Shown here one piece after another: positions 17,875 to 53,329 of a stretch of 64,000 bases of DNA (within the stretch, counting starts at the first letter, position 1; each line of letters opens with the position of its first letter). The position numbers and the translations under genes were made by a program. Below the pieces are notes generated by a model, which saw nothing but the letters and a program-made list of their open reading frames with translations, was not told the origin of the DNA and made no database searches. Source of the stretch: an uncultured Gammaproteobacteria bacterium (GTDB taxonomy: Bacteria > Pseudomonadota > Gammaproteobacteria > HK1); NCBI GenBank assembly GCA_958295465.1, contig OY282353.1:5515664-5579663 (forward strand), given 5' to 3'.

Positions 17875-18492
17875 CTATACAATATATCTGCGTTTGAATA
17901 TTTGATCCATCTTCCCTACAAGTTTCTGGCGTTTTATCTCAATGGCTATGAAAGGATATCGTCTTTCCAGAAATTGCAAACGTACCCTTCCCTCTACATA
18001 TTCCATTATAATATCACAACGCTCTTGTACAAGATTATCGTCATCATTCAGCTTGAGAATATCTATTGTATCTGTTGCCCGTTGAGCATATTTCGATGGA
18101 ATGATACTACTTGCCTTTATCAGACAACTTGGGAAGTCCATTGTGAACCAATTCGGCTGTATAATGAAAGGATCCAATATGCTCTCGCTTTCACCTTTAC
18201 GGTTATTTATAATGATAGATGCCAGGCGGTAATTGGACCACTCATAAGCAAGATTGGGATGTTTGGATTTCGGTAAGAAATGATCCACGCTTCCCGGAGG
18301 AATCAGATAATTGCATGTATACGCGCAGACTCCGTTATACAAACGGTGGAGATCATCAATAATATCTTTCCAGTAGTTTCTGAATTGGCTTGCTTTGAGG
18401 GGAGCACCATATTGGCTTAGAAACATTCTTCCTTTCTGACGCACTTCCGGATCGAAATTATGAGGTTCTGATTTAAGTATAACAGGAATCAT
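17875..18492 (-). CDS. HNH-family nuclease, PtuB/TIGR02646-like
   Basis: Core CAYTCNYLIPPGSVDHFLPKSKHPNLAYEWSNYRLASIIINNRKG matches the C.YC...DHF.PKS....W.N...C..CN..K pattern. The ATG at 18492 overlaps the upstream stop (ATGA). The gene is AT-rich. Confidence 0.65.
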   Translation of the reverse strand: MIPVILKSEPHNFDPEVRQKGRMFLSQYGAPLKASQFRNYWKDIIDDLHRLYNGVCAYTCNYLIPPGSVDHFLPKSKHPNLAYEWSNYRLASIIINNRKGESESILDPFIIQPNWFTMDFPSCLIKASSIIPSKYAQRATDTIDILKLNDDDNLVQERCDIIMEYVEGRVRLQFLERRYPFIAIEIKRQKLVGKMDQIFKRRYIV

Positions 18493-20366: not shown

Positions 20367-20370
20367 GATT

Positions 20371-21357
20371 TCAACGCGAGCGCAATTGACTTGCTGCGTA
20401 TTCGCAGAAATTCGTATTGAGATCGATACCAACCGCTGGATGTCCTAGCTCCAAAGCCACACGAATTGTTGTGCCTCCTCCCAAGAATGGATCCAGTACC
20501 AAACCACTTGGTTTGCAACCAATCTCAAGACACCGGCGTACCAATAAATCTGGATATGGAGCGGTATCGAGGCGTCCGTTGTTCTTAGGTCTAGCTGCGA
20601 TGGTCCACATATCCTCTTCGACCTTTTGATCGATCAAGGGCTGTTTATTGAAATAATAATATCTGTCTTTCGAGAACATGAAAACGTATTCGTAGCTGCG
20701 ACTGGGCCGATCACGGACTGGTTCAGGTAGCCTGTTTTCTCTATGCCAAATAATCGGGCTTCGAAGGGTCCAGCCACTAGCCACCAGACTGATGGCTACT
20801 CTCCAGGGTATACCGATTAACGACTTTCTAGACAATCCTATCCCCATTCCTCCGCTCTTATCGACAGCTCTGATACCAAATCTCCGTTTTGTACTCTTCC
20901 TATCAATACCTTGAGATTCTCCTTTTCCTGAATAATACGTATCACCTAGATTTAAAAATAGCAAGCCATCTTTACGCAAAATACGATAAATTTCATTCAT
21001 TACTTTTGTGATGTTGTCAACATATTCCTGAACTGAATTTTCCACTCCAAGTTGACGTTCTGCGCCATAATCTCTTAGCCAAAAATACGGTGGAGAAGTG
21101 ACTACGCAATGTACACTTTGATCGGGAAAATCCCGAAGAACTTCTACAGCATCTCCGTTGTAAATCCCCCAATTTAAATCGTAAACTGTTCCTTCCCAAC
21201 GAGAGTTTTTGAAGATGACGTCAGATTTCTTCGCAATTATTGCTTCTTCCGTCCCGGTATGAACATTGTCATGGAGCTCAGTTGAGTGTCGGTTCTCCGA
21301 TGATCGGATAGAGACAGGATATTTTTCCTGGCACAATTTTCCGCTTGAAGTATTCAC
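20371..21357 (-). CDS. Beta-class N4-cytosine/N6-adenine DNA methyltransferase
   Basis: Motif IV VVTSPPYF precedes motif I VLDPFLGGGTT. This IV-before-I order defines the beta class, and SPPY is more typical of m4C enzymes. GTG start at 21357. Confidence 0.85.
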   Translation of the reverse strand: MNTSSGKLCQEKYPVSIRSSENRHSTELHDNVHTGTEEAIIAKKSDVIFKNSRWEGTVYDLNWGIYNGDAVEVLRDFPDQSVHCVVTSPPYFWLRDYGAERQLGVENSVQEYVDNITKVMNEIYRILRKDGLLFLNLGDTYYSGKGESQGIDRKSTKRRFGIRAVDKSGGMGIGLSRKSLIGIPWRVAISLVASGWTLRSPIIWHRENRLPEPVRDRPSRSYEYVFMFSKDRYYYFNKQPLIDQKVEEDMWTIAARPKNNGRLDTAPYPDLLVRRCLEIGCKPSGLVLDPFLGGGTTIRVALELGHPAVGIDLNTNFCEYAASQLRSR

Positions 21358-21371
21358 TGTCCCGTCTCCAT

Positions 21372-21920
21372 TTAACCCAGCGTACTATGCTTTCTTTGTA
21401 TCTGAACCGAATGGTGGGCTCCACTATAGGTCAAAAGGGATCTGACATCAACGCACTCTCCGGCCAAGCCAAACACCTGTAGAGTGGTATTTTCTTCTTC
21501 TACATCCCCACAGTCGCCGCGTGTTGTCGTCGACGCACAAGCCATGTGGTTGTATCCGGTCATCCGTCGTGAGGCAGGCTGCATTTCACCCCATCCGCGA
21601 CGACGTGCACATTGTCCGATGTGGACCCTGCCAGTATTTTCGGATGTGTCGATTTCGCAAGGCACACTTCCGGAATGTACTGCAAGAAAGTCCACCCGGG
21701 ACAAGCATGAACCCATGCAGCTATCCAATTCGATTAAGATCCCGGCAGGATTCTTGACCGGCTCCTTATGGCGGAACCATGACGTCATAAGGACAAGATG
21801 GTTCCGCATCTGGTTGGGATGGTTCCGGTCGACGGCAGCAAGATCGGCGATGACTCCGACGCGGCGGACGTAGGTGATGGAGCCGAGGAGCGCGACATGC
21901 ATGGTAGCGGGATCAGTCAT
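21372..21920 (-). CDS. Hypothetical Cys-rich protein, first gene of the putative defence operon
   Basis: 182-aa ORF whose stop lies 11 nt before the MTase start, on the same strand. I recognised no motif family. GC is intermediate. Confidence 0.3.
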   Translation of the reverse strand: MTDPATMHVALLGSITYVRRVGVIADLAAVDRNHPNQMRNHLVLMTSWFRHKEPVKNPAGILIELDSCMGSCLSRVDFLAVHSGSVPCEIDTSENTGRVHIGQCARRRGWGEMQPASRRMTGYNHMACASTTTRGDCGDVEEENTTLQVFGLAGECVDVRSLLTYSGAHHSVQIQRKHSTLG

Positions 21921-23767: not shown

Positions 23768-24919
23768 TCAGTACGAGCGCGGGAGCCCGAGCACATGCTC
23801 GGCGAGGTAGCTCAGCACGAGGTTGTTGGAGATCGGAGCGATTCGATAGAGCCTCGTCTCGCGGAACTTGCGCTCGACGTCGTACTCCTCGGCGAAGGCG
23901 AAGCCGCCGTGGGTCTGCATGCACGTGTCCGCCGCCCGCCACGACGCCTCCGATGCGAGCAGCTTCGCCATGTTCGCCTCCGCGCCGCAGGGCTCGCCCG
24001 CCTCGAACAGCTCCGCGGCGCGCCCGCACATCAGGGCGGCCGCCTCGGTGGCGGCGTACGCCTCGGCGATCGGGAACTGGATCCCCTGGTTGCGGCCGAT
24101 GGGGCGGCCGAAGACGTTGCGCTCCTTCGCGTAGTCGCCGGCCTTGCGTATGAACCACCGGGCGTCGCCGATGCACTCGGCGGCGATCAGCACGCGCTCG
24201 GCGTTCATCCCGTCGAGGATGTAGCGGAAACCCCGGCCCTCCTCTCCTATGAGGCTGTCGGCGGGGATCTCCACATCGTCGAAGAAGACCTCGGTGGTCG
24301 AGTGGTTGATCATGGTGCGGATCGGGCGGATCTCCAGGCCCCTGCCCTTCGCCTCGCGCATGTCGAGGAGAAAGACCGAGAGGCCCTCGGTCCGCTTCTT
24401 CACCTCGCCGGCCGGGGTGGTCCGCGCGAGCAGGAGCATGAGGTCGGAGTGCTCGGCGCGCGAGGTCCACACCTTCTGGCCGTTGACCACGTAGTGCGAG
24501 TTCCCCTTCTTCACCGCGGTGGTGCGCAGGGCCAGCGTGTTGCTGCCGCTCGTCGGCTCGGTCACCCCGAACGCCTGCAACCGCAGCTCGCCGGATGCGA
24601 TTCCGGGCAGGTAGCGCCGTTTCTGCTCCGGGCTGCCGTGACGGAGCACCGTGCCCATCGTGTACATCTGGGCGTGGCAGGCGGCGCCGTTGCAGCCCGC
24701 CCGGTGGATTTCTTCGAGCACCGCCGCGGCGGCGGAGAGGGGCAGCCCGCTGCCGCCGTATTCCTCGGGGATGAGGATGGAGAGATACCCCGCCTCGGTG
24801 AGCGCCTGCACGAACTCCGTCGGGTAGGCCCGCTCACGATCGAGCACGCGCCAGTACCCGCCGGGGAAGCGTTCGCAGAGCTTCCCGACCGCATCGCGGA
24901 TTTCGGGCCAGTTCCTCAC
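23768..24919 (-). CDS. Acyl-CoA dehydrogenase family protein
   Basis: 383 aa with ACAD-fold motifs throughout (FGVTEPTSGSN, GRGFRYILDGMNAERV, RETRLYRIAPISNNL). The GTG start overlaps the upstream stop (GTGA). Confidence 0.9.
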   Translation of the reverse strand: MRNWPEIRDAVGKLCERFPGGYWRVLDRERAYPTEFVQALTEAGYLSILIPEEYGGSGLPLSAAAAVLEEIHRAGCNGAACHAQMYTMGTVLRHGSPEQKRRYLPGIASGELRLQAFGVTEPTSGSNTLALRTTAVKKGNSHYVVNGQKVWTSRAEHSDLMLLLARTTPAGEVKKRTEGLSVFLLDMREAKGRGLEIRPIRTMINHSTTEVFFDDVEIPADSLIGEEGRGFRYILDGMNAERVLIAAECIGDARWFIRKAGDYAKERNVFGRPIGRNQGIQFPIAEAYAATEAAALMCGRAAELFEAGEPCGAEANMAKLLASEASWRAADTCMQTHGGFAFAEEYDVERKFRETRLYRIAPISNNLVLSYLAEHVLGLPRSY

Positions 24920-25020
24920 CGTGGGCCTCCCCGCTCCATGCGCAGCCAGGCCGCGGTGCCGTCGCGGGCCACTTCGCAGAGCTTCCCGACCGCATCGCGG
25001 ATTTCGGGCCGGTGCCTCAC
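24916..25020 (-). other. Chimeric 34-codon mini-ORF 3
   Basis: GTGA overlap with mini-ORF 2 and with the ACAD start. Encodes MRHRPEIRDAVGKLCEVARDGTAAWLRMERGGPR. Confidence 0.3.
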
Positions 25021-25121
25021 CGTGGGCCTCCCCGCTCCATGCGCAGCCAGGCCGCGGCTCCGTCGCGGGCCACTTCGCAGAGCCTCTCGACCGCGTCGCG
25101 GATTTCGGGCCGGTGCCTCAC
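25017..25121 (-). other. Chimeric 34-codon mini-ORF 2
   Basis: GTGA overlap at both ends. Encodes MRHRPEIRDAVERLCEVARDGAAAWLRMERGGPR. Confidence 0.3.
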
Positions 25122-25222
25122 CGTGTGCCTCCCCGCGCCATGCGCAGCCAAGCCGCGGTGCCGTCGCGGGCCACTTCGCAGAGCTTCCCGACCGCATCGC
25201 GGATTTCGGGCCGGTGGCTCAC
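25118..25222 (-). other. Chimeric 34-codon mini-ORF 1 created by the tandem repeat
   Basis: GTG start overlaps the rhodanese TGA. Encodes MSHRPEIRDAVGKLCEVARDGTAAWLRMARGGTR: the ACAD N-terminus joined to the rhodanese C-terminus. Confidence 0.3.
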
Positions 25223-26943
25223 CGTGGGCCTCCCCGCGCCGTGCGCAGCCAGGCCGCGGTGCCGTCGCGGGCCACTTCGCCGGGCAGCGCGATCTCCCAG
25301 TCGAGGTAGTCGTTCATCGCCTTCTCCATGCCTCCCTCGGCCTCGTGGATGGGGACGAGGACGTCGTCGGGATCGTCGAGGTAACGCGGTTCGGCGGCGG
25401 TCAGCGGATACCCCGCCGCGGCCCACGCCGCGTTGCCGCCTTCGAGCGCCCGCACCGGGGCATCGACATATGCCGCGGCTTCCGCGGCGGCGAGGCGGGC
25501 CAGCGCGCCGCCGCCGGAGGTGAACACCAGCATCCGCCCGGAGTGCCGGCCGCCGAGTGCCCGGGCGAGCCCATCACCCGCCTGTCCGCGGACACCCGGA
25601 TCAGACCGGTCGTCGAATGCCCGGCCAAGCCTCGCCCGCACCGCGTGGCAGGCCCCGGGAATGTGCCCGGCCCGGTAGGCGCGGCTCAGCGAGACGTCCA
25701 CGACGTCCGCTTCGCCACGGTCGAGCGCCGACGCGAGCGCATCGGGGGCGATGCCGGTGATTGTCGCGCCGCCCGCGATGCGGGTCGCCGCCGCGAGCGC
25801 GCCGGAGGCGACCCTCTCCATGCGTGCCTCGTCCATCCCGAGCACCGGCGGCACGAGCATCCCCGTGTCGAGCGCATGACCCTCGATACCCCCTTCGAGC
25901 ACCACCGCGTCGCGCCAGCCCATCTGTACCAGCCAGGAGGCGGTCATCGTTGCCCGCACTCCGTCGTCATCCACCAGAACGATGCGCGAGCGCAGGGTCC
26001 CGGCGTGCCGGTCCGTGGCCTGCACGAGCTGCCCGCCTGCGACCCAGCGCGCGTCGGGCAGATGCCCGGCCTCGTACTCTTCGCGGGTGCGGACGTCGAA
26101 CACGAAGAGCGAGCGCACTTCGGACTCTGCGCGCCAGCGGTCCAGCGTGGCGCGATCGATGCCGCGCACCCCGAAGCGTTCCGCGACCCGTGCCGCCGCG
26201 GCCTTCGCCTTCGCGGCCCCGGCCGCCGACGGCCTCGCGGCGTGCTCCGTCGCGCCCTTGGCGAGATCGAACCCCGCGAGATGCCACGCCATGGTGCCGT
26301 TGCGCAACGCCACCACCCGGTTGGGCACGCCGGCGTTGATGATCGACTGCGCGCCGATGATGCTCCGGGTGCGGCCCGCGCAATTCACGACCACCGTCGT
26401 CTCCGGCGACGGCGCGGCATCGTGCACGCGGTACGCAAGCTCGGCGCCGGGACAGCAGCGCCCGCCGGGGATGCTGAAGTTGGTGAACTCGGGGGAGGGG
26501 CGGCTGTCGAGGATGACCGGATCCTCGCCAGCATCAAGCATCGCCCGAAGCTCTTCGGCGGAAACCGACGGGGTGCCGAAGGCGTGCTCGACCACCTCGC
26601 CGAATGCCTTGCTCGGGACGTTGACGCCGCTGAAGAGGACGTAGCCGGCCGCGGCCCAGGCGGCGATGCCGCCTTCCAGCACCGAGACATCGGTATAGCC
26701 GAGTCGATCGAGCCTCGCCGCGGCCCGCGCCGCCTCGCCCGCCCCCGCGTCGCACGTAACGACCCGTGCACCGCGGCGCGGAACGAGGAGCGGGGCCAGC
26801 CGTTCGAGCCTCGAAAGGGCGCAGCAGCTCGCGTAGAAGAGATGCGACTCGGCGAAGCGCCGCTCCTCGCGCGTATCGAGCAGCGCAAGCTCCCGATCGT
26901 CGAGGATCATCCGCTTCAGCTCGCTTGCGGTCACCGTCTTCAT
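25219..26943 (-). CDS. Four-domain rhodanese (sulfurtransferase) protein
   Basis: 574 aa from MKTVTASELKRM, with four rhodanese-like repeats. Only domain 2 shows a catalytic loop (VVVNCAGRTRS). The other three carry D, or no Cys, at that position. Confidence 0.8.
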   Translation of the reverse strand: MKTVTASELKRMILDDRELALLDTREERRFAESHLFYASCCALSRLERLAPLLVPRRGARVVTCDAGAGEAARAAARLDRLGYTDVSVLEGGIAAWAAAGYVLFSGVNVPSKAFGEVVEHAFGTPSVSAEELRAMLDAGEDPVILDSRPSPEFTNFSIPGGRCCPGAELAYRVHDAAPSPETTVVVNCAGRTRSIIGAQSIINAGVPNRVVALRNGTMAWHLAGFDLAKGATEHAARPSAAGAAKAKAAAARVAERFGVRGIDRATLDRWRAESEVRSLFVFDVRTREEYEAGHLPDARWVAGGQLVQATDRHAGTLRSRIVLVDDDGVRATMTASWLVQMGWRDAVVLEGGIEGHALDTGMLVPPVLGMDEARMERVASGALAAATRIAGGATITGIAPDALASALDRGEADVVDVSLSRAYRAGHIPGACHAVRARLGRAFDDRSDPGVRGQAGDGLARALGGRHSGRMLVFTSGGGALARLAAAEAAAYVDAPVRALEGGNAAWAAAGYPLTAAEPRYLDDPDDVLVPIHEAEGGMEKAMNDYLDWEIALPGEVARDGTAAWLRTARGGPR

Positions 26944-41736: not shown

Positions 41737-42489
41737 TCATGAAAGCTCCTTGCGAGCGATGGCAACAGCATGGAGCGACTCACCCCGATCAATACATTGA
41801 TCATCGAGAAGCAGGCACAGTTCGAGTAACGGGGCATCCTCCGGAGTCATGTTCGCCAACACGTCGTTGAGTGCAAAGGCGTAAATGACGCCTCCAGTGA
41901 GAACGACGTCAGCATCCGGGAAAAAGGTTCGAACCGCATCGAGAATCCGTTCGCTGTCGGCAGCATCGGTCGGGTCGTCCGCGATCAATAACGCCACGTC
42001 CGGGCGGCCTCGCTTGACGGAGAGCCGTTTCGTCGAATCCCGCGGGTCGACGAGGAGGCGGTCCGGGAAGATGTTGCGTAATCTTTCAGACATTGAAAGA
42101 GTGAAGTCTGTCCACTGCCGCCGGGAAGGACCAATGAAATCGTCCATTACGAAGAAACCCCCGGGGCGAAGGATGGACTTGCTCCAGCCGACGGCCTGAT
42201 GCACATCGAGCATATGATGAAGAGCGTCGCCCCAGAATACCAAGTCATAGTGACCGGGTCTCGCCAGCTCGTCCGCTTCTCCGCTGGTGAATCGGATCCT
42301 TTCATCAAGACCTCGCCTTTTTGCAAGCTCACGTCCCTCACGTATGCGAATCTCGCTCAGTTCGAATACGTCGAATTCCTGAACCAGATCGGATTCTAGC
42401 ATGTCCATTTCGGCCGAGCCAGTCCCGCAACCGACGGATATTCCCTTGTCAAGCATGTCTCTCCCAAGACGTACTTGAAGCCGTTGCAT
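41737..42489 (-). CDS. Class I SAM-dependent methyltransferase
   Basis: Motif I ISVGCGTGS and post-I acidic residue. DLVFWGDALHH and RPGGFFVMDD motifs. Confidence 0.75.
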   Translation of the reverse strand: MQRLQVRLGRDMLDKGISVGCGTGSAEMDMLESDLVQEFDVFELSEIRIREGRELAKRRGLDERIRFTSGEADELARPGHYDLVFWGDALHHMLDVHQAVGWSKSILRPGGFFVMDDFIGPSRRQWTDFTLSMSERLRNIFPDRLLVDPRDSTKRLSVKRGRPDVALLIADDPTDAADSERILDAVRTFFPDADVVLTGGVIYAFALNDVLANMTPEDAPLLELCLLLDDQCIDRGESLHAVAIARKELS

Positions 42490-42601: not shown

Positions 42602-43408
42602 TCATCGTCCCATTAGCTTTCTTGTCCTTTTGAGCCGATCCGGCGTGTTTTCCGCTCCCTTGCCAGGCCTGCTGCGTCCGTCCCGCGCTTCCAGCTTGCG
42701 GGCGGCGTGCCCTTCGCGCAAAAAAATCATACCTTCGTTGACGAACCAGGGTTTCTCCTGGTTGAACGATCCGTAGATTCTGGTGAACCGGGGAATAAAT
42801 CCGTTCTTGAAGAACAGAGATAAAATATCCTTTCGCACTATTCCCCACTGCCAATAATTGTGGACGTCCCTCATCACCTTACCTTGGGTGTGGGAATATT
42901 CGTCGTGCTCCGAAAACCAGCGCTCAATAGCAACCTCACGTGTGCAATGGACATTCGCCTTGTACCATTCGATGCCCTTGTCTACGAATCGGGTGGTGTT
43001 TTCGCTCCCGGTCCAATTCTGAGTGTAAATTATGCACATCCTGGTGTATGGCAGATAATCCCGGATGAACTGATCCCAATCAGGATCGACTTGGTGCAAC
43101 AGGATATCGTACATGATCAAACAATCGACTTCGCCTACCGCATCGCGAACTTCCTTCGCGCCGAGGGCTCCTTCGATCAAGGACACCTTCGGATAATCCC
43201 GGGACCTCTCTCTGGTCAAGGGAGTGATTTCTCCATCGACAATGAAGCCCCTCTCCAGACTGTCGCTGCAAACTTCCGCTGCGTGGAAAGCATAAGCGCC
43301 GTTTACTCCCCAGCAGGCTCCAAGATCGGCGAAAGATCGAAAGGGCATGATTCCATATGCCCGGTCGATCAGCTTCAACTTGTGAGGTGCGGGTTGCACG
43401 TCGAGCAT
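42602..43408 (-). CDS. Putative methyltransferase-like protein (weak)
   Basis: FADLGACWGVNG is motif-I-like and DCLIMYDILLH follows. It lies in the polysaccharide operon. Assignment is tentative. Confidence 0.45.
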   Translation of the reverse strand: MLDVQPAPHKLKLIDRAYGIMPFRSFADLGACWGVNGAYAFHAAEVCSDSLERGFIVDGEITPLTRERSRDYPKVSLIEGALGAKEVRDAVGEVDCLIMYDILLHQVDPDWDQFIRDYLPYTRMCIIYTQNWTGSENTTRFVDKGIEWYKANVHCTREVAIERWFSEHDEYSHTQGKVMRDVHNYWQWGIVRKDILSLFFKNGFIPRFTRIYGSFNQEKPWFVNEGMIFLREGHAARKLEARDGRSRPGKGAENTPDRLKRTRKLMGR

Positions 43409-43476: not shown

Positions 43477-43656
43477 GGGCTTGGAGCTCGTCCGACAGAC
43501 GCTTCGGAGAGGATGGGGTCATCTCGGCAATTCCGGGCCTGGAATCTCGCGTATCCGCCGCCAATCGTGGCCCAGAACGCGGCTGAGTGCCCGCGGTGCG
43601 GCGGCAGCGTCGCGTTCCTCCCTCTCCGAAGCGTCTGTCGGACGAGCTCCAAGCCC
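43477..43656. repeat. Perfect 36-bp inverted repeat flanking a 108-bp spacer, bracketing the stop codon of the 2393-aa gene
   Basis: 43477-43512 GGGCTTGGAGCTCGTCCGACAGACGCTTCGGAGAGG is the exact reverse complement of 43621-43656. Confidence 0.95.
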
Positions 43657-46600
43657 GCCGTAAAGCGGCGAATTCCCGGAAGAGGGTCCGGCGCCGGGAT
43701 AGACCCCCAAGCCGGCGGGCGCCAAGCCGGCGGCGAGCGATGACCAGACCTGCCGTCCCTCGGCGCTACCCGGAGCCGAGGCGGCGAAGCAATCGGTGTC
43801 AACGACGGCAAGGTCCACCTTCCCTTTCATGCTCGCAATCGCTTCGGCCGCCGAGTCCGGGTCCCGACCATGATATACCACATGAAACATACGTGCTCCG
43901 AGCGCCTTCCCGAGAGCCGGATCCATGGTGAGAAGCACCGCATGACCGCCTCGGTGTGTCCGCCAATCATGGGCGAGTCTCTGGAATACGCTCCGTCCGA
44001 ACGGTGTGGAGCCGCATCGAGCACAGGTCCCTGCATCCTCCAGAATACTCGCCGATTCCGCGTTGCAGACATTGCAACAGGCCCGGCGGCCGTTCCGGCG
44101 TGTATCAAGAAGACCCCGGGCGGTTTCCAGGGTCAGCGGATGCGCTACCACGGTATGCTCATCCAGGACGGCGGACAGGGTAGGAAGGGTCTTCACCGTC
44201 AAGGAAGCTACCTCACCGATCGCGCCCAGCTCCTCGCCTTGGCTCTCCAGGAAATAGCTGAACTCCACGTCCATGTTGTTCTGGGGAGTTTGTTCGGAGA
44301 AGCCGCCATGACGACCGATCACCGAGCGGCGGATGATGTAAACCCCGCCCTGGACGTGAGTAAAGACCCAATCGGGATTGCGTTTGGCGAATTCCTGGTT
44401 CCTGAATCTGGCGAAGTCGGGATGGCCGACGATCTCGCGCCCCAGGGTAAACCTCGGCAGATGGGTGCGGTATCCGGCCATCGCATGCCCCGGATTTCGC
44501 CGCATGTGATCGATGAGATACCGTTCCCAACCATGCTTCCCGACAAACGCTTCCTTGCTGCAAAGGTAGATGGAGAAACTCGCATCGCCGAGCGCCATCG
44601 CCATGTTGGAGGCCGGCCCGCACAGCAGGTTGTCCTTCAGGAAGACCAGGCGGACGTTCGACCTGCCGGTGCAGAGCTCGATCAGCTCCCGACGAAAATC
44701 CGGATCGCTGTTGTTGTCGATGATCGTCAACGTGAAGGGCGTGGTGGTGTGCCGCAGGACGCGCCGGATGATCTCGAACGTTTCCGCGCGGTTCTCGTAT
44801 TCCGCCGTGTTGTAGGTGACCATGAAGACGTCCACGGGACGGCTTTGCCAGACGTCCACGTAGTTTCGGAGGGTACGCTCGGTGCCGGCGTGTCTGCGCA
44901 GGAAGTTGCGGGCCTCCGACAACATGGCCTCCCGCCGTTCGGGAGTCATGGCGAGAAGCCGGCGAACGCCGTCCACCAGGCTGTGCGGGTCTCCAGGGGT
45001 CACCAGGATGGCCTCGGCCATGTCCCGCAGATAGTCCGGCACCGCCGAAACGGCGCTTGCGATGACCGGGCGGCCCGCCGCCATGGCCTCGAGAATCACC
45101 GTGGGGAAGCCTTCCCTGTCGCCGTCGGCGGCGACGATGCTCGGAACCACCAGGAAATCGGCTTCCCCGATTGCCGCCGCTACGGCCTGGACGCCGTCGA
45201 GCGGCCCCTTGATGTTGACGTTCTCGATGCCGAGCTCCGCGAGCTTCTTGCGACAGGAGGTTTCCAACGGTCCGTAACCGTAGACGTCGAAAGCAACGGA
45301 GGTTCCCTGCAACCGAGCGGCGGCGTCGATCAGGACCTCGATTCCCTTCTTCTCGATGAAACGGCCGATGAGGATTCCCCTCCTGACTTCGGACGGCGGC
45401 GAAGGGAAGTCCGCCAGAGGCGGGATCTTCTCGAACTCGGAAAGATCGACGGCCTGCATGTTGAAGGCGATCTTCTCGGCCGGCACGCCCTGCTCTTCGA
45501 GAAAGCGGCGATGATGATCGCCGTAGACGAATACCTTGAGGCACCGAGGGTCCCGGACGACTTCCGCGATCCGATTTCGGTTCCTGTTGTGATCGTGGAA
45601 AATGTCCACTGCATGAGCAAACAGGGTGAAAGGTATGCCGGTCGCCTTGCTGGCCGGCCAGGTCAGGGCATGCGCGGCAGGCGCCGCAAAGTGCGTATGG
45701 CACAGCGTGCGTCCATCCCGGATCAGGAGCTTGGCCAGATGCGTTGCGTCGCGCACCCGGTGGGCATCGATCTCGAAGTCCGGCTCGGCGGCGCGATCCG
45801 GTTCGATTCTGAAATAAACGGCCACGTCTTGTCCGTTGCGAACGAGCCAGCGAAGCTCCTCCAGTACGAAGGTTTGTGAAAGCGCCGGCCAATCCCAGAG
45901 GACATAAGCCAGCTTGATCGGAACGATACCATGTCGGATCCGCTCTGCCGCATGTTTCCTCAAAACGCGTTTCATATTGGCGCCGAGATCCACCGTGTGG
46001 GTGATGTTACCGAGTTCCGCCTTGCCAAGATAATAGTCCGCTCCGACATAAGGAACGAAAACAGGACTGTATCGCCTTGTAACGGATATGATGAAATCCC
46101 AATCGACCAGACGGGTCAGATCCACATCGAATCCGCCATTTTGCAGATAGACGTATCTCCGGTGCATGAAGGTGTTCAGATCGATGAAATTCTTAATCAG
46201 GAGTTCCGCCCGATCATAAGGTACGGAATGGATGTAATCGGCGCCGGAATCCAGGTTATGGAGATGAAAGGCCGCATAGGCCGTAGCAACTTCCCTTGCG
46301 CTGGAAAACAAGGCCGCCATTACCAGCAGATAATCCCTGCGCCAGGTATTGTCGCTGTCCAGGTATGCAATGAGATCACCCGTCGCGCTCTTCAAGCCGG
46401 CGTTTCTCGTATCGCATACCCCGGTGTGAGACTTCTCGATCAGCCTGACAATTCCCGAATTTATTTCGGCTGCGAATCGATCGCGTACGACATCTCGGCT
46501 TGAATCGTTGCTCCCGTCGTCTACGACGATGATCTCATGAGGCATGTACGACTGCGCGAGAACCGATTGTATGGCCCTGCATATGAACTTCTCCCTGTTC

Positions 46601-49600
46601 CATACCGGCATGATCACGGAAACGGTCGGTCGCTCCTCTGCAAGCTCCCGCTCCGCAATTTCCCTGATGCCGCCCGGTAGATCTTCCGCCGCAGTATTTC
46701 CGAATCTCTGAAGCTCCTCGATCAGTCGATTCCGCGGCCTCCGGAGATGCGACAGATCAGGTCCGTGTACGAGCTCGCCCACATCGAACTGCCCACCGAA
46801 ATCCATGCTCGCGAAATCCATGCTCGGCATCGACTGAAATCCCTTATGCACGCCGATCCGTAGATGGAAGAGCAGAGGATTGATCCCGCTCGATGCGGCT
46901 TCAGGATAGCGGGACAAGTAGGAAATCCCATTGAAGTCCTTGCTGGGTTGGCGTTTTTCATGCCAGCCCTGGGTGCAATAGTGGCTGAGTGGATCGACAC
47001 CGGAGGAACGAACGTCCGGATTTGCTTCGAGGTAGTACTTCTCATCGAAAAAACCGGACCGCCGAACTTCATCTATGTCATCGGCCATGCTCGGAATGTG
47101 ATCGGGCCATTCTTCATCGCCATCGACGCTCGAGGGATGATGACCGGAAGCGGTCCCGATGGGAGCCGTAGCGGTCACGTTGAACCCGGATTCCTTCACG
47201 AGCAGGCCCATGACCCTCTCGATGGCGTGCTGCAGACATCCATCCGTCTGGCCTGCCTCCACTTCGAATTGTTCCGGATCGATCAGCTCCTTGTCCATGA
47301 GCCCCTTCAACGATGCGACTCGAAACCAGAACATCGAACCGGCGGAGAAGTCGAAGTTATAGGAGCCGATCAGATCTGCTCGCCCAATTTTTCGTAGCAG
47401 CTTGTCCAGCCAGTAGTGGTTACTGATGTGACGTTGCCTCTTCGATAGATCCACCAGAGACCCCCGGGGAACGATCATGCCCAGCTTCTCGTCTCGTGAG
47501 AACTCGCGGGTGATCTCTTCGATATCCGTCTTCAGTAAAGCATCCAGAAGCCTTTTGCGTATCGCATCGCCGTCATTTCTATATTCCGTCTTCTTGGTGT
47601 GTATCTTGCAAGCCGTTTCGTAACCACGTTCGACCAGGAGAGGATAGATCTTCAGGAAGGGGCGAATATCGCGTCCGCGATTTTCCAACATCATCATGTA
47701 CAGGTTGGGGAACTTCCCGCGAATCCTGGCTATTGTCGCCATGGAGACGGATTCGTGCACCGTCACGAACATGTCGATCTTGCCGGCGATCGGATCCAGG
47801 TACTCTGTAATAATGTCGTCTACGAGGTCTTCGTAATATACGTGAAATATCACGCAAATGTCGTTCGATTTCTTGAATCTTGCATTTATCTCTTCAATCA
47901 GATTCCTTCTGCTCACCGTTTCGAGGGCGGATCGGGTCGCCTGCAGATATGCGTGGCCGTATCGCTGATCCGGCTCCAGGTAGGCACCTTCCGCCCACTC
48001 GTTCCAGGCGTTGATGAACACCAGCCTCTCGTCCCCGGTACGGCGCGCACATGTCCGTTCCATGACACCCCGCAACCACTTCTCGTACGCACCGGGGCTC
48101 GCGCCGTGAAAAATGGTAGCCGAGTCCCGTCTGCGAGCCGTGTTGTCCCAGTCAGGAGCTACACAATGGAACCTCGTGATATGGTCCGGAATGTCCGCTT
48201 CCAAGCGTCTCTCGACAAGCTTGGTGTAGCTCCGAACCGATCCGGCGTAATTGGGATTCAGTTTTCGTCCCGGTATCCCGATGCCAAGATCGTGCGAACC
48301 GTGGGGCGGATATTCGACAATAGCATCCATACCGTAGATCGCCGGATCGGTATCGACGCGCTCATATTCGAACGATGCGACCATGGCCAGATATAATTCA
48401 CCAACGCCTTCCTCTCTGCAGAGCTCACGCCAGCTACGCACGGTGGATTGAATATCGGGAAACAACCCGATCCTGTAGACCAGGAACAGGGGTTTCCCAT
48501 CTATTCGTATGTAGTTGGGGTGCCTGAAGTACCGAATCACATCACGCATGGCCTCCAAATCGTCCTCAGCGTGATGCCGCTGAGCGAGCAGTATCTCACC
48601 CTCCTTCCCGTCCCAGCGTCGGGTCCAGGGTTCATTTGCCCATGACAGGCAGAAGGGAAAATCCGGCTTGCCGGTCGCGAGCATTCTCTCGATCGGCATT
48701 TCCAGCAGGCGCCGCCCCTCGAACCAATAGTAGTGATAGCAGAAACCGTGGATTCCGTAGTAGCGCGCAAGAGCCGCCTGCCGCTCCATTACTTCGACGA
48801 TTCGCAAATCGTAGAAGCCGAGGTCCGCGGGGAGACGGGGTTGATAGTGTCCTTCGAATTGGGGAGCTGCCTTTCCGACGTTCGTCCATTCCGTGAAGCC
48901 TTGTCCCCACCACTCGTCATTTTCAGGAATCGGATGAAACTGGGGCAAATAGAACGCGATCAGTTTCACGGACAGGGATTCCGGATCGATCGGATCGGTA
49001 CATTTCGCGACGTGCGATCCCGACCGGGAATCTGCAACCTCCAGCGGACGGTATGGCTTAGGACGTGGATTCGATCCGTGCGAATCCATCCGTGGGTGAG
49101 ATTCGCCCCCCCAGTTGCGCTCGGCGACCGCTTCGCTCAACCCCTGGATGCGCCCGTTGCGCTCCGCGGCTTTCCTGGCATGAGCGAAGTCCTCCCACGC
49201 GCGGTAGGCGTCCGTGTATCGAAACAGCAGCGGGGCAGATCGGAAGAGCTCCTCCTTGATGCGCATCTTGACCGACCAGGGAAGTGGCAATCGGTAATAG
49301 AGCCATTGAGCGGTCAGACTTGCGATCGTGCGCGCCTTCGACACCGGCCTCTGTATGACATGTCGCTGCAAGCTTCGAAGCGGAGCGGTGATCCGCCAAC
49401 TGTTGGAGCCGTACAGGGCCGCGATCTCGTCTCCACGCCGGTCCAAGGCCTCGTTCAACTCCTCGATGCGCCCGTCGCGCTCGGCGACCATCTCGCTCAG
49501 CCCCTCGATGCGCCCGTCGCGCTCGGCGACCATCTCGCTCAGCCCCTCGATGCGCCCGTCGCGCTCGGCGACCATCTCGCTCAGCCCCTCGATGCGCCCG

Positions 49601-50700
49601 TCGCGCTCGGCGACCATCTCGCTCAGCCCCTCGATGCGCCCGTCGCGCTCGGCGACCATCTCGCTCAGCCCCTCGATGCGCCCGTCGCGCTCGGCGACCA
49701 TCTCGCTCAGCCCCTCGATGCGCCCGTCGCGCTCGGCGACCATCTCGCTCAGCCCCTCGATGCGCCCGTCGCGCTCGGCGACCATCTCGCTCAGCCCCTC
49801 GATGCGCCCGTCGCGCTCGGCGATCGATTGTTCGCAGTCGGCAATGTAGCGGCTGAAGAGCGGTGTCGCTTCGTCGAAAGCCGATCTGATTCGATCCAGC
49901 AATGCGATATCCGTCTCGCAAACCTCACCGCGACTCCATCGATTGAACAATTCGAAGCACTGCCCAAGCCAGCGTGAGAGTACGGGATTCGTCAGAAACG
50001 TCGCGTCGTCGGACTGATGATGGTGCAGCTCGGGAGAGAGGAATCGCTCGATCTTCGCATGAGCATGAACCGACGCGCGCTTCGGCCACGAAACGTCGAG
50101 GTCCCGTCCCAGACGATCCGTGATCGCGTGCGGTTCGGAGAGAAGCGTCTCGTAACGCAAACATGCGCGCTTGAGGTTCCGCGATCCCGATTCCGCTTCC
50201 AACACGTGCCGCAGCCAGATGAGATGCCCGCAGGAAACGCCGATTCCATCGCGTTGCTTCAGTGACGTGGCCACGTCGAGGGGATTGCGGATGGGTAATA
50301 CGACTCGAGGCTCGGCGCCGAACGTTTCCAGCGCCTCGATCCAGAAGGGGAGCAATCGGCATAGACGAGGGTCTTTCACCACGAATAGCCGGCTGTCGCC
50401 GAATTCCCGGTGGAGCAACACCTGGGCCCGTTCCCGGAACGGGCCGGCCGTCGGGGAAGCATACCAACCCGGATCGAAGGGTCGCCAATCATTCCAATCG
50501 GAATCCGAGGACCACAGAATATCCCGATTCAGCTCCCAGATCGGTCGAGACTCCCAGAATCCTTCATCGTTGTTGTCGGGAACGGGCTCCATCAAGGTCT
50601 TCGGCAGGTCGCACCCCTCCAGATTCAATACGCGAGACAGGGCCGAGGTGCCGCTCCGGTGCATGCCGGCGACGAGGATCGCGATCTTTCGATGGGACAT
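43519..50700 (-). CDS. 2393-aa multidomain polysaccharide synthase: sulfotransferase, coiled-coil repeats, WbsX-like, RgpF-like, GT2, GT4, GT2, Zn-ribbon tail
   Basis: N-terminus GMHRSGTS plus RNPLDVATS (PAPS-binding motifs). [14 protein letters not shown] x8. [25 protein letters not shown] (WbsX). [20 protein letters not shown] (RgpF). [24 protein letters not shown] (GT2). [20 protein letters not shown] (GT4). [15 protein letters not shown] (GT2). CCNVCN..CARCGS (Zn ribbon). Confidence 0.85.
49444..49821 (-). repeat. In-frame tandem repeat: 42-bp unit, 8 identical copies plus 1 degenerate copy
   Basis: GACCATCTCGCTCAGCCCCTCGATGCGCCCGTCGCGCTCGGC starts at 49486 and then every 42 nt to 49780. 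The degenerate unit at 49444-49485 encodes [14 protein letters not shown]. Confidence 0.95.
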
Positions 50701-50733: not shown

Positions 50734-51675
50734 CTAGAGCTTGTTCAACAAGGATGCGGCAAGCAGTCCGAGAGTTTCCGCACGCCTCTGGCGGTACACG
50801 CCGGACTTGATGATTCGCCGCAGTCTGGACGAAAAACGGCCCTCGGTCACCGCTTGGCGGTAGGTGTCGAAGATGCGCCGGTTCTCCGGCGCAAGAAGGT
50901 GTCTGGTTTCATACAACGCCCGGCAGTTCGCGGCGTTGGAGTCTCGAAAGTCGCCTCTGGCAATCCTTGCGAGGCGCCGGGCGTGGTCGGATGGACGGAC
51001 CGACGAACCAATCAGGTTGCGATCATGCTGGCGATACCGTGCAGAAGGATGCGGATCGTAGAACACCTTTCCGCCGGCGCCGGTGACGAGAAGGTATGTC
51101 CACCAATCGTGGATCGGTCCCTCCCTTACGCCCGAGGCGCGCAGGAGCTCGCGCGCCGCCCGGTTCATGACCATGGTGTGCCCGCTGACGATGTTCTGCG
51201 CCAGCGCGTTCCGAAAGCACGGCGGCCTGCGGTACAGCGGCGAAAGCCCCAGATCGCGACCGTTCTCGCCAATCAGCCGCGTCCTCGACCCATAGAGCGC
51301 CGGGACGGCATCGGGAGCCCGCTCCAGCACTGCTACGGCGCGAGACAGCTTGTCGCGATACCAGACGTCGTCCTGGTCCGAATAGGCGAAATAATCGGCT
51401 CGAATCTCCGGATTGAAGACCAGGGAGAAAAAATTCGCCGAGCATCCCTGCTTCGGCCCTTCGAGGACGAAAAAGCGATCCGCTCCGAACGTGGGGGCAT
51501 GCTCTTCAAGCACGGCACCCACGTCTTCCCCGTCGCAGTCTCTCGATATCCATAATTCGAAGTTCTCGTGGCTCTGGGCCCGGATGGACGAGAGCTGCTC
51601 CGGCAGGAAGCGTGCATCTTCGAACACCGCCATGAGCACCGCGACCTTGGGCCGGGTCCCCGTCTCGCCGTTCAA
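50734..51675 (-). CDS. GT2-family glycosyltransferase (rhamnosyltransferase-like)
   Basis: PKVAVLMAVFEDARFLPEQLSSIRAQ and YSDQDDVW (DxD). A probable TTG start at 51675 overlaps the wzt stop (TTGA). Confidence 0.75.
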   Translation of the reverse strand: MNGETGTRPKVAVLMAVFEDARFLPEQLSSIRAQSHENFELWISRDCDGEDVGAVLEEHAPTFGADRFFVLEGPKQGCSANFFSLVFNPEIRADYFAYSDQDDVWYRDKLSRAVAVLERAPDAVPALYGSRTRLIGENGRDLGLSPLYRRPPCFRNALAQNIVSGHTMVMNRAARELLRASGVREGPIHDWWTYLLVTGAGGKVFYDPHPSARYRQHDRNLIGSSVRPSDHARRLARIARGDFRDSNAANCRALYETRHLLAPENRRIFDTYRQAVTEGRFSSRLRRIIKSGVYRQRRAETLGLLAASLLNKL

Positions 51676-52430
51676 TGATTCATCTCCCCGTACTCCCGCA
51701 GCACCTCGCCTATCGGCCCGGACGCTCTGACCCGCCCGGCATCGAGGAGCACTCCCGTGGTGCAGTTGCGCTCGAGCAACGCGGGGTTGTGAGAAGCGAG
51801 CACCAGAATGCCCGCGCGGTTCACGAACTCTTCGAGCCGGCGTCCAGCCTTCTCGACGAAGGCCGCATCGCCGAGCCCGATCCATTCGTCCATCAACAGG
51901 ATCTCGGGCTCGATGCAGGTACACACCGCGAGGGCGAGTCGCAGCTTCATGCCGGTCGAGTAGGTATGCATCGGCATCGCCAGGTAGTCGCCGAGCTCGG
52001 TGAATGCCGCTATTTCACCGGTGCGCTCGCGAACCTCCGCCGGAGTGAACCCGAGGAATATCCCGCGCATCATGATGTTCTCGTATCCCGTTGCACTTGG
52101 ATCGATGCCCAGAGACCAATCGAACAGCGGGGACACCTGCCCCCGGCGCCGCATCCACCCCAACGTCGGCTGGTAGACGCCCGCGAGCACCCGCAGCAGC
52201 GTCGTCTTGCCTGAGCCGTTGGTGCCGATCAGGCCGACCCGGTCGCCACGCCCGAACGTGAGACTCACGTCCTCCAGCGCCCGCACCGACACACGGTTTT
52301 CGGCGGTGCGGGCGATGCGCCCGCCGGTGCTCTTGCGCAGCAGGTTGTTCTTCAGGGAGCGGGAATCCGCGCTGTACACCGGGAAATCGACCGTCACGCC
52401 GGTGAGCTGAAAGCCGGTCTCGATGTTCAT
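51672..52430 (-). CDS. wzt: Polysaccharide-export ABC transporter ATP-binding protein (Wzt/TagH-like), short form
   Basis: Walker A GTNGSGKTT, signature YSTGMKLRL, Walker B ILLMDE. At 252 aa there is no C-terminal glycan-binding domain. Confidence 0.85.
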   Translation of the reverse strand: MNIETGFQLTGVTVDFPVYSADSRSLKNNLLRKSTGGRIARTAENRVSVRALEDVSLTFGRGDRVGLIGTNGSGKTTLLRVLAGVYQPTLGWMRRRGQVSPLFDWSLGIDPSATGYENIMMRGIFLGFTPAEVRERTGEIAAFTELGDYLAMPMHTYSTGMKLRLALAVCTCIEPEILLMDEWIGLGDAAFVEKAGRRLEEFVNRAGILVLASHNPALLERNCTTGVLLDAGRVRASGPIGEVLREYGEMNH

Positions 52431-53329
52431 ACCCAGTAAGCGATCCGCCCGCGGTAGAGGCGATACATGAGGAGCGTCACGAGCCAGCCGCCGAGGGTGA
52501 TGCCCAGGACCACGAGCCACGAGACGAGCCCCGGCGTCTGCCCGAGCGCCGGCGCCCGCACCAGCTCCATGAAATGAAAGAACGGATTGAGGTCCAACAG
52601 GTATGCGCGGTCGGGCACCAGTTCGGGCTTCCAGATGATCGGCGTCAGGAAGAAGGCGATCCGCATGACGCTGGCCACAAGCTGGGGAACGTCCCGGAAG
52701 CGGGCCGACACCAGGCCGAGCAGCAGCCCTATCCACACGCCGTTCAGACAGAGAAGCGCAAGGCCCGGGAGGAACAGAAGCCCGGCCCAGCCCGGTTGGA
52801 TCGAGAAAAGGACGGCCGCGACGATATACACGACGGCGTTGTGGGCGAAGATGATGAGGTTGCGCCATGCCAGGCGGTACACATGGATCGACAGGGGCAG
52901 GTTCACCTGCTTGATGATGCCCCCGGCGCTGATGAACACGGTGCAGCCTTCGTTGATCTGGTCCGAGAGCAACCCCCAGAGGACAAAGCCGGCGGCGATG
53001 AACGGCAAGTAGTCCGCGACGTCCACCTTGAACAGTCCGGCATACAGCACGCCCAGCCCCCCCACCAGCGCCCCCATGCTCACGGTGAGCCAGAACGGAC
53101 CGAACGTGGAGCGGCGATAGCGCAGACGGATGTCCTGCCAGCCGAGCATGCCCCATAAACGGAAAGCGCAAGCCCCCCCGATGATGTCCTGAAGGGCCAG
53201 CGTGGTTTGCGATGAGGGGGGAGACGTGAGGGCGATGTTTCTGGAGGTTTCCGCCGCGCTGTCGTCAGGTACGGCCGAATGGGCACCCGCATCGGCTGAT
53301 GACATCTGCATTCGATCTCCTTGCGCCAT
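52427..53329 (-). CDS. wzm: ABC-2-type polysaccharide export permease (Wzm)
   Basis: 6-TM ABC-2 pattern (WQDIRLRYRRSTFGPFW). ATGA overlap with wzt. Start codon uncertain. Confidence 0.8.
   Translation of the reverse strand: MAQGDRMQMSSADAGAHSAVPDDSAAETSRNIALTSPPSSQTTLALQDIIGGACAFRLWGMLGWQDIRLRYRRSTFGPFWLTVSMGALVGGLGVLYAGLFKVDVADYLPFIAAGFVLWGLLSDQINEGCTVFISAGGIIKQVNLPLSIHVYRLAWRNLIIFAHNAVVYIVAAVLFSIQPGWAGLLFLPGLALLCLNGVWIGLLLGLVSARFRDVPQLVASVMRIAFFLTPIIWKPELVPDRAYLLDLNPFFHFMELVRAPALGQTPGLVSWLVVLGITLGGWLVTLLMYRLYRGRIAYWV

Follow-up and report, generated by a model that had tools for sequence, protein, structure and literature searches.

Introduction

What could maintain eight identical copies of a 42-bp unit, in frame, inside the gene of a very large glycan-assembly protein? 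The question is raised by a stretch of 64,000 nucleotides from an uncultured Gammaproteobacteria bacterium (GTDB lineage HK1; GenBank assembly GCA_958295465.1, contig OY282353.1, positions 5,515,664 to 5,579,663 of the forward strand), which is referred to below as the window and whose first letter is position 1. A gene on its minus strand encodes a protein of 2393 amino acids (aa), in which an N-terminal domain with the fold of a sulfotransferase dependent on 3'-phosphoadenosine 5'-phosphosulfate (PAPS) is separated from five glycosyltransferase (GT) modules by a helical stalk, and the array forms the core of that stalk. Because the stalks of related bacteria gain and lose whole repeats, we infer that the stalk probably serves as an evolvable length ruler for a surface polysaccharide.

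Coiled-coil rulers are the accepted means of length control for O-antigens and capsules in pathways that depend on an ATP-binding cassette (ABC) transporter, and the evidence for them has so far come from a few enterobacterial prototypes together with engineered insertions and deletions. A terminating enzyme is found at the coiled coil's distal end in every characterised system, with a ruler role of the coil established for Escherichia coli O9a (WbdD) and Klebsiella pneumoniae O12 (WbbB) (PMC11231755). The catalytic domains of WbdD are held ~200 Å from the membrane, and insertions raise, and truncations lower, the modal chain length (PMC5082667).

An in-frame array of identical 42-bp units

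The eight units occupy positions 49486–49821 of the minus strand (aa 294–405), running from unit 1 at 49780–49821 and unit 2 at 49738–49779 down to unit 8 at 49486–49527. Every unit reads GCCGAGCGCGACGGGCGCATCGAGGGGCTGAGCGAGATGGTC on the minus strand and encodes 14 aa, with 0 mismatches among the eight. Self-identity at a period of 42 was found in a run of 321 positions within 49461–49823, and Tandem Repeats Finder (TRF) delimited the array as 49450–49823, with a period of 42, 8.9 copies, and 99% matches. When the window was shuffled 100 times with its dinucleotides preserved, the unit was never matched, and an Rfam scan of the window detected no family. The array is followed by a ninth, degenerate unit of 14 aa (49444–49485, minus strand, aa 406–419), whose first 25 nucleotides (nt) are those of the unit, and by a displaced relic of 1.3 units, or 18 aa (49114–49167, minus strand, aa 512–529). 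A preliminary description of this DNA, made from its letters alone, had reported the eight identical units, the ninth degenerate one, and a distant relic about 100 aa further on. The first two claims agree with our results; the relic is indeed present, starting 93 aa past the end of the ninth unit, but it is not distant in sequence, since 46 of its 54 nt (85%) are those of the unit.

The array, 8 × 42 bp at 100% identity with a unit length that is a multiple of 3, is in frame with the open reading frame (ORF) of 2393 aa (43519–50700, minus strand), in which the G+C content of third codon positions exceeds that of second positions, as expected for a coding sequence of this genome. Two ORFs on the plus strand also cover the array (48733–49977 and 49328–49849) and were rejected as antisense by-products, the third-position G+C pattern backing the minus-strand frame. 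An on/off switch of the phase-variation type was likewise ruled out, since gains and losses of a unit whose length is divisible by 3 can never shift the frame. The protein has been recorded once, as a singleton cluster, and comes from a 5.68-Mb contig.

A sulfotransferase head on a coiled-coil stalk

The structure of aa 1–575 was modelled with AlphaFold2 as a monomer, on the basis of 76 homologues. The N-terminal domain (49822–50700, minus strand, aa 1–293) was assigned as a PAPS-type sulfotransferase (ST) from its fold and its motifs. Its predicted local distance difference test score (pLDDT) exceeds 90 over most of the domain, and a single block of 10 residues is at 67. In a Foldseek search against the PDB, all of the top 20 matches (E ≤ 1e-3) were PAPS-dependent sulfotransferases, with target template modelling (TM) scores of 0.37–0.52 and a probability of 1.00. 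The best match was the ST domain of CurM (4gbm, E = 3e-6), TPST1/2 and the mycobacterial Stf0 and Stf9 were also found, and heparan sulfate 3-O-sulfotransferase (3-OST) matched just above an E of 1e-3. Across 76 sequences, two motifs show complete invariance or a conservation of at least 90%, namely MHRSGTS (aa 13–19) and RNPLDVxxS (aa 138–146, with R138, N139, P140, and S146), and from knowledge of the superfamily we take them to be the PAPS-binding elements, the 5'-phosphosulfate-binding (5'-PSB) loop and the 3'-phosphate-binding (3'-PB) motif, respectively. A sequence search of the PDB with this domain gave no meaningful relative, and no Pfam or NCBIfam match connected the head with the characterised terminators (kinase/methyltransferase, GT99, and GT137). 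Because the fold neighbours of the head are sulfotransferases, its kinship to the prototype terminators is one of analogy and not of homology.

The stalk is predicted to be one continuous α-helix (49414–49911, minus strand, aa 264–429) with the array as its core. The 166 residues of this uninterrupted helix correspond to ~24.6 nm (~246 Å at 1.48 Å per residue), and each 14-aa unit contributes ~2.08 nm. The hydrophobic power spectrum over aa 264–429 has peaks of 3.46 at 3.5 residues and 3.94 at 7 residues, with a power of 0.2 at 3.6 residues and of at most 0.3 at every other period tested. The spacing of I, L, and V by three and four residues that had been pointed out in the unit corresponds to the heptad core, I7 and V14 being at a positions and L10 at a d position. 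The two Gly residues of each unit had been named as a concern for coiled-coil formation; the concern is minor, because both residues sit at the outward c and f positions. NCBIfam matches over the stalk were to coiled-coil proteins, of the SlyX-type, SMC, and Rad50 families. The single helix and the 3.5-residue periodicity, to which the a/d pattern of the family described below can be added, thus bear out both the coiled-coil propensity and the helical heptad spacer, growing by roughly 2 nm per unit, that the preliminary description had proposed. A heptad-phased helical coiled-coil stalk, built from repeats and placed between the sulfotransferase and the GT modules, is well supported. According to classical rules, the combination of β-branched residues at a and Leu at d would favour dimers.

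As in the known class of rulers and terminators (WbdD, WbbB, O7 ORF6, and O4 ORF7), the coil carries the modifying enzyme on its far side from the polymerase, with the GT modules beginning at aa 580. The foot of the stalk is marked by the motif SWRITAPLR (49375–49401, minus strand, aa 434–442), which was recognised from its conservation in relatives: SxSWRxTxPLR occurs in 64 of 122 relatives, always in a fixed heptad phase relative to the sulfotransferase domain. The motif opens a conserved basic and hydrophobic module that extends to about aa 500 (~49200–49400), and no Pfam family covering this module was found. Stand-alone relatives end 24–40 aa past the motif with a basic tail. By analogy with the C-terminus of WbdD, the module may be a docking or membrane-proximal element. 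The motif and the basic/hydrophobic stretch were also noted in the relatives P0024, P0032, L001, and L088. No transmembrane segment was found in the protein, and a membrane anchor was ruled out because its hydrophobic segments are too short.

Heptad quantisation of stalk length in the family

The N-terminal domain belongs to a large family, with 4,936 representatives of 50%-identity clusters at E ≤ 1e-30, 17,745 at E ≤ 1e-3, and at least 569 matching stretches in species-representative genomes. Its members are found in Alpha- and Gammaproteobacteria, Cyanobacteria, Acidobacteria, Planctomycetes, Actinomycetes, and others. Fused members carry RgpF, GT4, GT2, GT25, TPR, or methyltransferase modules, and the stand-alone members are proteins of ~380 aa whose stop codon is overlapped by a separate GT gene. 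The two formats have both been described for known terminators, as WbbB-like (fused to GTs) and WbdD-like (ending after the coil) (PMC11231755).

Tandem repeats were detected at the protein level in the stalks of 51 of 120 relatives, and the period is a multiple of 7 in 50 of these 51 (7, 14, 21, 28, 35, 42, or 56 residues). At the DNA level, TRF found arrays in the stalk zone at 29 of 80 genome loci. The periods of 24 of the 29 arrays are multiples of 21 nt and those of three are multiples of 33 nt (hendecads), whereas outside the stalk zone only 21 of 91 arrays have a period that is a multiple of 21 nt. At the loci L004, L012, and L052, stalk arrays were observed with periods of 33, 66, 198, or 264 nt, that is, of 11n and not 7n residues, which suggests hendecad- rather than heptad-based coils in some lineages.

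The length of the spacer from the domain end to the SWR motif varies from 48 to 227 aa among 64 sequences, and its remainder on division by 7 is 2 in 38 of them, 6 in 22, and another value in four. When both ends were anchored strictly, the remainder was 1 or 5 for 31 of 32 distances (chi-square p = 8e-14). These remainders define two register classes, four residues apart, within which stalks differ by whole heptads only. For position statistics, the 64 relatives were put in heptad phase by counting back from the SWR motif. I, V, or L occupies the a position in 78% of cases; the d position, four residues on, alternates between Leu (35%) and Arg (34%); and of 175 ER[DN] motifs, 135 fall in one phase. 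Because the position and ER[DN] phases agree across the 64 relatives, the heptad register is unbroken from the head to the foot motif, and because the spacer lengths fall into two classes modulo 7, both ends of the stalk are in rigid coupling with the coil's phase. Coupling of this kind would be ruler-like, unlike a floppy tether.

Turnover of the array in relatives

The perfect identity of the units had been ascribed to very recent expansion or to ongoing slippage or recombination, and the relatives lend support to this. The nearest one (P0124/L088, on a 3.3-Mb contig of assembly ERZ19489055) has the syntenic order wzm, wzt, GT2, gene, and its ST domain is 87% identical to that of the window at the protein level and 91.5% at the DNA level. 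Its array is at the same position and is internally perfect, and each of its units departs from that of the window at 5 of 42 nt. This pattern of fixed differences between two homogenised arrays points to concerted evolution. The relic shares its Ser codon with the window unit and its Ala codon with the L088 unit; to judge from these codons, it probably keeps an ancestral unit that escaped homogenisation.

Differences in unit number were observed within one metagenome assembly, ENA ERZ19489113, whose contig names fit the hifiasm-meta pattern. It contains four haplotigs (L084–L087), from one population, of a homologous gene encoding a sulfotransferase, a coiled coil, and a GT4 module. L084 and L085 are identical over 2424 flanking nt of the gene, but their arrays number 9 and 6 units, respectively, of 63 nt; L086 and L087 have 1 difference in 2424 flanking nt, with 5 and 6 units, so that the members of a pair differ by one to three units. 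The two lineages are 1.1% apart, with every array homogenised to a variant of its own. An insertion sequence (IS; DDE_Tnp_1) lies upstream of the gene in three of the four haplotigs and is missing from the circular chromosome contig; because it is present in three and absent from one, the polysaccharide locus is itself variable in these strains. Further variation was found within clusters of at least 90% identity: members of the P0005 cluster have 7, 5, and 8 units, and in the P0001 cluster the count varies and rearranged mixtures of two unit types occur. The best match in the genome scan, L001, is 56% identical and has 11.2 copies at 99% identity in a complete chromosome record.

In the immediate relatives of the window gene, a count of eight units plus one (8+1) is common to the window, P0124/L088, and P0262. 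It is suggestive that the count appears to have been held in this lineage, as selection on length would produce such a result; the comparison covers two lineages.

A mosaic protein in a Wzm/Wzt locus

The whole gene (43519–50700, minus strand) encodes, in order, the sulfotransferase, the coiled coil, the SWR module, and five GT modules; these modules and the genes given with coordinates in this section are on the minus strand. The first GT module is of the Glyco_tran_WbsX family (47935–48963, aa 580–922, Pfam E = 8.7e-134) and is followed by the C-terminal module of RgpF, rhamnan synthesis protein F (47185–47925, aa 926–1172, Pfam E = 1.7e-36). A GT2 module comes next (46051–46629, aa ~1358–1550; Glycos_transf_2 E = 2.4e-31, Pfam match 1361–1470) and then a GT4 module of the GT-B type (44851–45903, aa ~1600–1950; Glyco_trans_1_4 E = 1.4e-26, Pfam match 1776–1932). 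The fifth, a third GT-A-like module, is weak (44101–44829, aa ~1958–2200), with a Glycos_transf_2 match below the cut-off (E = 0.0021); its region is 80% identical to the same region of the protein P0125.

A separate GT2 gene is located immediately upstream (50734–51924). Its syntenic counterpart at L088 encodes 311 aa, and its true start is probably later than the start of the ORF. The genes wzt (51672–52430), for an ABC transporter ATPase of 252 aa with an ABC_tran match only, and wzm (52427–53329), for the ABC-2 type membrane component (ABC2_membrane E = 4.4e-12), are both directly upstream of the giant gene. The flanking genes include rmlA, rmlC, epimerases, dehydratases, a methyltransferase, further GT2 genes, and a Polysacc_synt_2 dehydratase, and the G+C content of the locus is below that of the surrounding genome. 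By its gene content, the locus encodes an ABC-transporter (Wzm/Wzt)-dependent pathway for a rhamnose-containing polysaccharide.

The protein looks like a mosaic of two kinds of sulfotransferase-headed protein. Residues 1–1179 match P0124, which comprises the ST domain, coil, SWR module, WbsX, RgpF, and a methyltransferase, with 65% identity overall and the 87% given above for the ST domain. Residues 1207–2391 match residues 359–1542 of P0125 with 80% identity, and P0125 has a sulfotransferase head of its own, two units, a linker, GT2, GT4, and GT-A. The junction would lie near aa 1179–1207 (~47080–47165). Such a layout suggests module shuffling or fusion by deletion, and modules have evidently been shuffled between sulfotransferase-headed proteins.

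Directly downstream of the giant gene are a stand-alone class I methyltransferase gene (41737–42489) and an ORF of 268 aa with no Pfam match (42602–43408). The methyltransferase could serve an alternative or additional modification of the glycan; the orthologous protein P0124 has a methyltransferase fused to it. At 46797–46826, inside the giant gene, a 15-bp segment, CGAAATCCATGCTCG, is perfectly duplicated in tandem. The duplication doubles five residues, SMDFA, in the linker ahead of the GT2 module and is another in-frame product of slippage.

Proposed mechanism and alternatives

The best-supported inference is that the protein is a sulfotransferase-headed coiled-coil ruler and terminator, and by analogy with the prototypes we hold this to be reasonably probable. 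The stalk belongs to a cytoplasmic, multi-module glycan-assembly protein and keeps the PAPS-dependent sulfotransferase at a set distance and angular phase from the foot motif. A lipid-linked chain would grow at the GT end until it reached the distal sulfotransferase, where its non-reducing end would be sulfated; sulfation would stop extension, and the length of the stalk would in this way set the modal chain length. Replication slippage or unequal recombination would add or remove whole units, and both the reading frame and the coiled-coil register would survive such gains and losses because the unit is a whole number of heptads. The turnover would homogenise the units and shift the stalk length in steps of ~2 nm, as is seen in the relatives and would be expected here.

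A capping role of the head is supported because five relatives pair it with a transporter of the cap-reading type: the adjacent Wzt has a Wzt_C carbohydrate-binding module at the loci L019, L022, L051, L060, and L066 (E = 6e-10 to 7e-28). In L066 (Rhodanobacter), the protein is laid out as sulfotransferase, coiled coil, GT, and GT25, and no other candidate cap enzyme was found in it. A ruler of the WbdD/WbbB type, as the preliminary description had envisaged, is upheld by the same architecture in a wzm/wzt locus; it is not upheld by the local Wzt, which is without Wzt_C, or by the head, which is not homologous.

Several observations weigh against the ruler and terminator. The Wzt_C module was not found in the local Wzt of 252 aa and is also lacking in the Wzt of L001 and L088, and no PAPS-synthesis genes were found within the window. 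The match of the head to Pfam Sulfotransfer_3 (aa 8–206) scores 22.0 bits, under the gathering cut-off of 27 bits. In the stalk, the pLDDT of the monomer model is above 90 at the start of the helix and ~50 at aa 400–430, and the fourth core position of the unit, one core position in four, is occupied by Arg3. One of the five relatives linked to Wzt_C, L051 (Dyella), also has a methyltransferase domain, which is a possible source of the cap. Regarding the rapid adjustment of length, homologous genes do vary in copy number, but the closest relatives share the 8+1 count, and no second allele of the window gene was present in the collections searched. The exact 42-nt unit had 0 matches in metagenome contigs of the Joint Genome Institute (JGI), and a protein-guided scan of the same contigs found only two partial relatives, of 54–63% identity. 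On these sequences, a rapid length dial is demonstrated for the family and not for this organism.

Among the alternatives, the one that survives best is that the stalk serves oligomerisation or as a scaffold, that the sulfotransferase decorates internal sugars, and that chain length is set by competition between polymerisation and export, so that copy number has little effect. Competition of this kind sets the length in terminator-free systems such as K. pneumoniae O2a; here, export would be through the module-less Wzm/Wzt, the local Wzt having no Wzt_C. The sulfotransferase could be a decorating enzyme, as a sulfated, rhamnose-containing capsular polysaccharide (CPS) of an ABC-transporter pathway, that of Vibrio KMM 8419, has sulfate on every repeat unit (PMC11641403). 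It is nevertheless hard to explain why a scaffold would place the head ~25 nm from the GT modules and why the stalk would be heptad-quantised against both of its ends. The characterised coiled-coil proteins of these pathways are all terminators or rulers (PMC11231755), the same head is paired with a Wzt_C transporter in the five relatives named above, and the 8+1 count is conserved across lineages with fully homogenised arrays. We therefore consider the scaffold and decorating enzyme unlikely, though well worth keeping in mind.

A second alternative is that the array is a neutral, selfish-like minisatellite in a tolerant linker, its identity reflecting recent slippage and its length variation reflecting drift. 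Free variation of copy number among near-identical genes in some populations would fit such a minisatellite, as would E. coli capsule typing, which deems variation in the coiled-coil length of putative methyltransferases not critical for K-antigen production (PMC13171606). A tolerant linker would not, however, be expected to confine its periods to multiples of 7 aa, as in 50 of 51 protein repeats and 24 of 29 DNA arrays against 21 of 91 outside the stalk zone, or to keep the heptad register from the domain to the foot motif. The counts of the window and L088 are, moreover, equal despite turnover. Taken together, these observations make neutrality improbable. An assembly artefact, whether of the whole array or of its copy number, is most improbable, for although short reads cannot size perfect arrays of 336 bp, a short-read collapse is unlikely because the protein comes from a 5.68-Mb contig, and perfect arrays are found at the same position in independent assemblies (L088, L001, and the hifiasm-meta-type contigs).

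The ruler and terminator can be extended into a bolder proposal, in which sulfate is a new chain-terminating cap, the ruler in many members of the family is a heptad-quantised minisatellite that acts as a contingency locus for glycan length, and the unit count is selected at a lineage optimum (8+1). We offer this tentatively, as possible but rather doubtful. If it is true, slippage would give standing, heritable variation of chain length within populations, in steps of ~2 nm and not as on/off expression.

Comparison with known systems

The closest counterpart in layout is WbbB of K. pneumoniae O12 and Raoultella terrigena, in which an N-terminal modifier, a coiled coil, and polymerase GTs are joined in one polypeptide in a Wzm/Wzt ABC-transporter pathway. 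The relative L066 comes close to it, with its sulfotransferase head, a tail containing GT25, and a Wzt_C transporter. In contrast, the head of WbbB is a GT99 β-Kdo transferase and that of the window protein is of the PAPS-type sulfotransferase; WbbB has two GT modules and the window protein five; and the local Wzt of the window has no carbohydrate-binding module. The stalk of the window protein is, in addition, encoded as perfect tandem DNA repeats.

ORF6 of K. pneumoniae O7 consists of a methyltransferase-kinase, a coiled coil, and two GT2 modules, a further GT being separate. It resembles the window protein as a fusion of terminator, coiled coil, and GT in a Wzm/Wzt locus that uses deoxythymidine diphosphate (dTDP)-rhamnose. 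Some of its orthologues have GT modules and the others stop once the coil is complete (PMC11231755), and the same is true of the sulfotransferase family. The cap is a methyl phosphate in O7 and presumed to be sulfate here, and the two heads are without homology. By these comparisons, the window protein would work like WbbB and O7 ORF6, but as an analogue, with a non-homologous head and a Wzt that lacks the module.

In WbdD of E. coli O9a and K. pneumoniae O3, the terminator is a protein of its own that has a trimeric coiled coil of ~200 Å and a C-terminal region that binds the membrane and the polymerase. The modelled stalk of the window protein (aa 264–429) is of the same order, at ~246 Å, and the stand-alone relatives end in SxSWRxTxPLR and a short basic tail, at the position of the docking region of WbdD. 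Unlike WbdD, the window protein has its head fused to the polymerase, and its a/d pattern has β-branched residues at a and Leu or Arg at d. No amphipathic membrane helix was demonstrated in the window protein. Natural variation of coiled-coil length among strains also occurs in the putative methyltransferases of E. coli group 3 capsules; the head enzyme there is a different one, and the length variation is given only as a nuisance in typing, in a passage that speaks neither of repeat units nor of heptad quantisation (PMC13171606).

Outside glycan assembly, a protein whose own length sets that of a product is known from YscP, which determines the needle length of the type III secretion system (T3SS), and from the tape-measure proteins of phages; internal duplications in such proteins change the length of the product. 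Their folds and pathways are unrelated to those of the window protein, and they measure protein assemblies and not glycans. In the open literature, we found nothing on rulers encoded by perfect repeats, on heptad quantisation across a family, or on a sulfate cap, and nothing specific on sulfotransferases as terminators. The terminator census of Mann, Kimber and Whitfield (Glycobiology, 2019) is said to have predicted "new chemistries", and sulfotransferase heads may possibly be listed in it.

The family offers a natural experiment, since unit number differs between co-existing strains and both the relation of stalk length to chain size and the need for heptad register are testable on natural alleles. 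Sulfate is a candidate for a new capping chemistry, in a sulfotransferase family that is widespread and essentially unstudied. With a transporter that has no cap-reading module, the window locus can show whether ruler-type termination works without cap-dependent export. If length is indeed tuned by the array, this would bear on the interactions of uncultured symbiotic or environmental bacteria with phages, hosts, or the immune system.

Other features of the window

A second tandem array, of 101 bp × 4 with 93% identity, is located at 24872–25280; its period is not a multiple of 3, and it has no Rfam match. It starts inside the 5' end of an acyl-CoA dehydrogenase gene (23768–24919, minus strand) and extends upstream, and it appears to repeat the start region of that gene. 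An island of low G+C content (0.46, against ~0.68 around it) lies at ~17900–21900. Its genes encode an AAA_21/AAA_15 ATPase (18489–20432, minus strand) and an N6/N4 DNA methylase (20371–21357, minus strand), and the island was probably acquired, as an islet for restriction-modification or defence.

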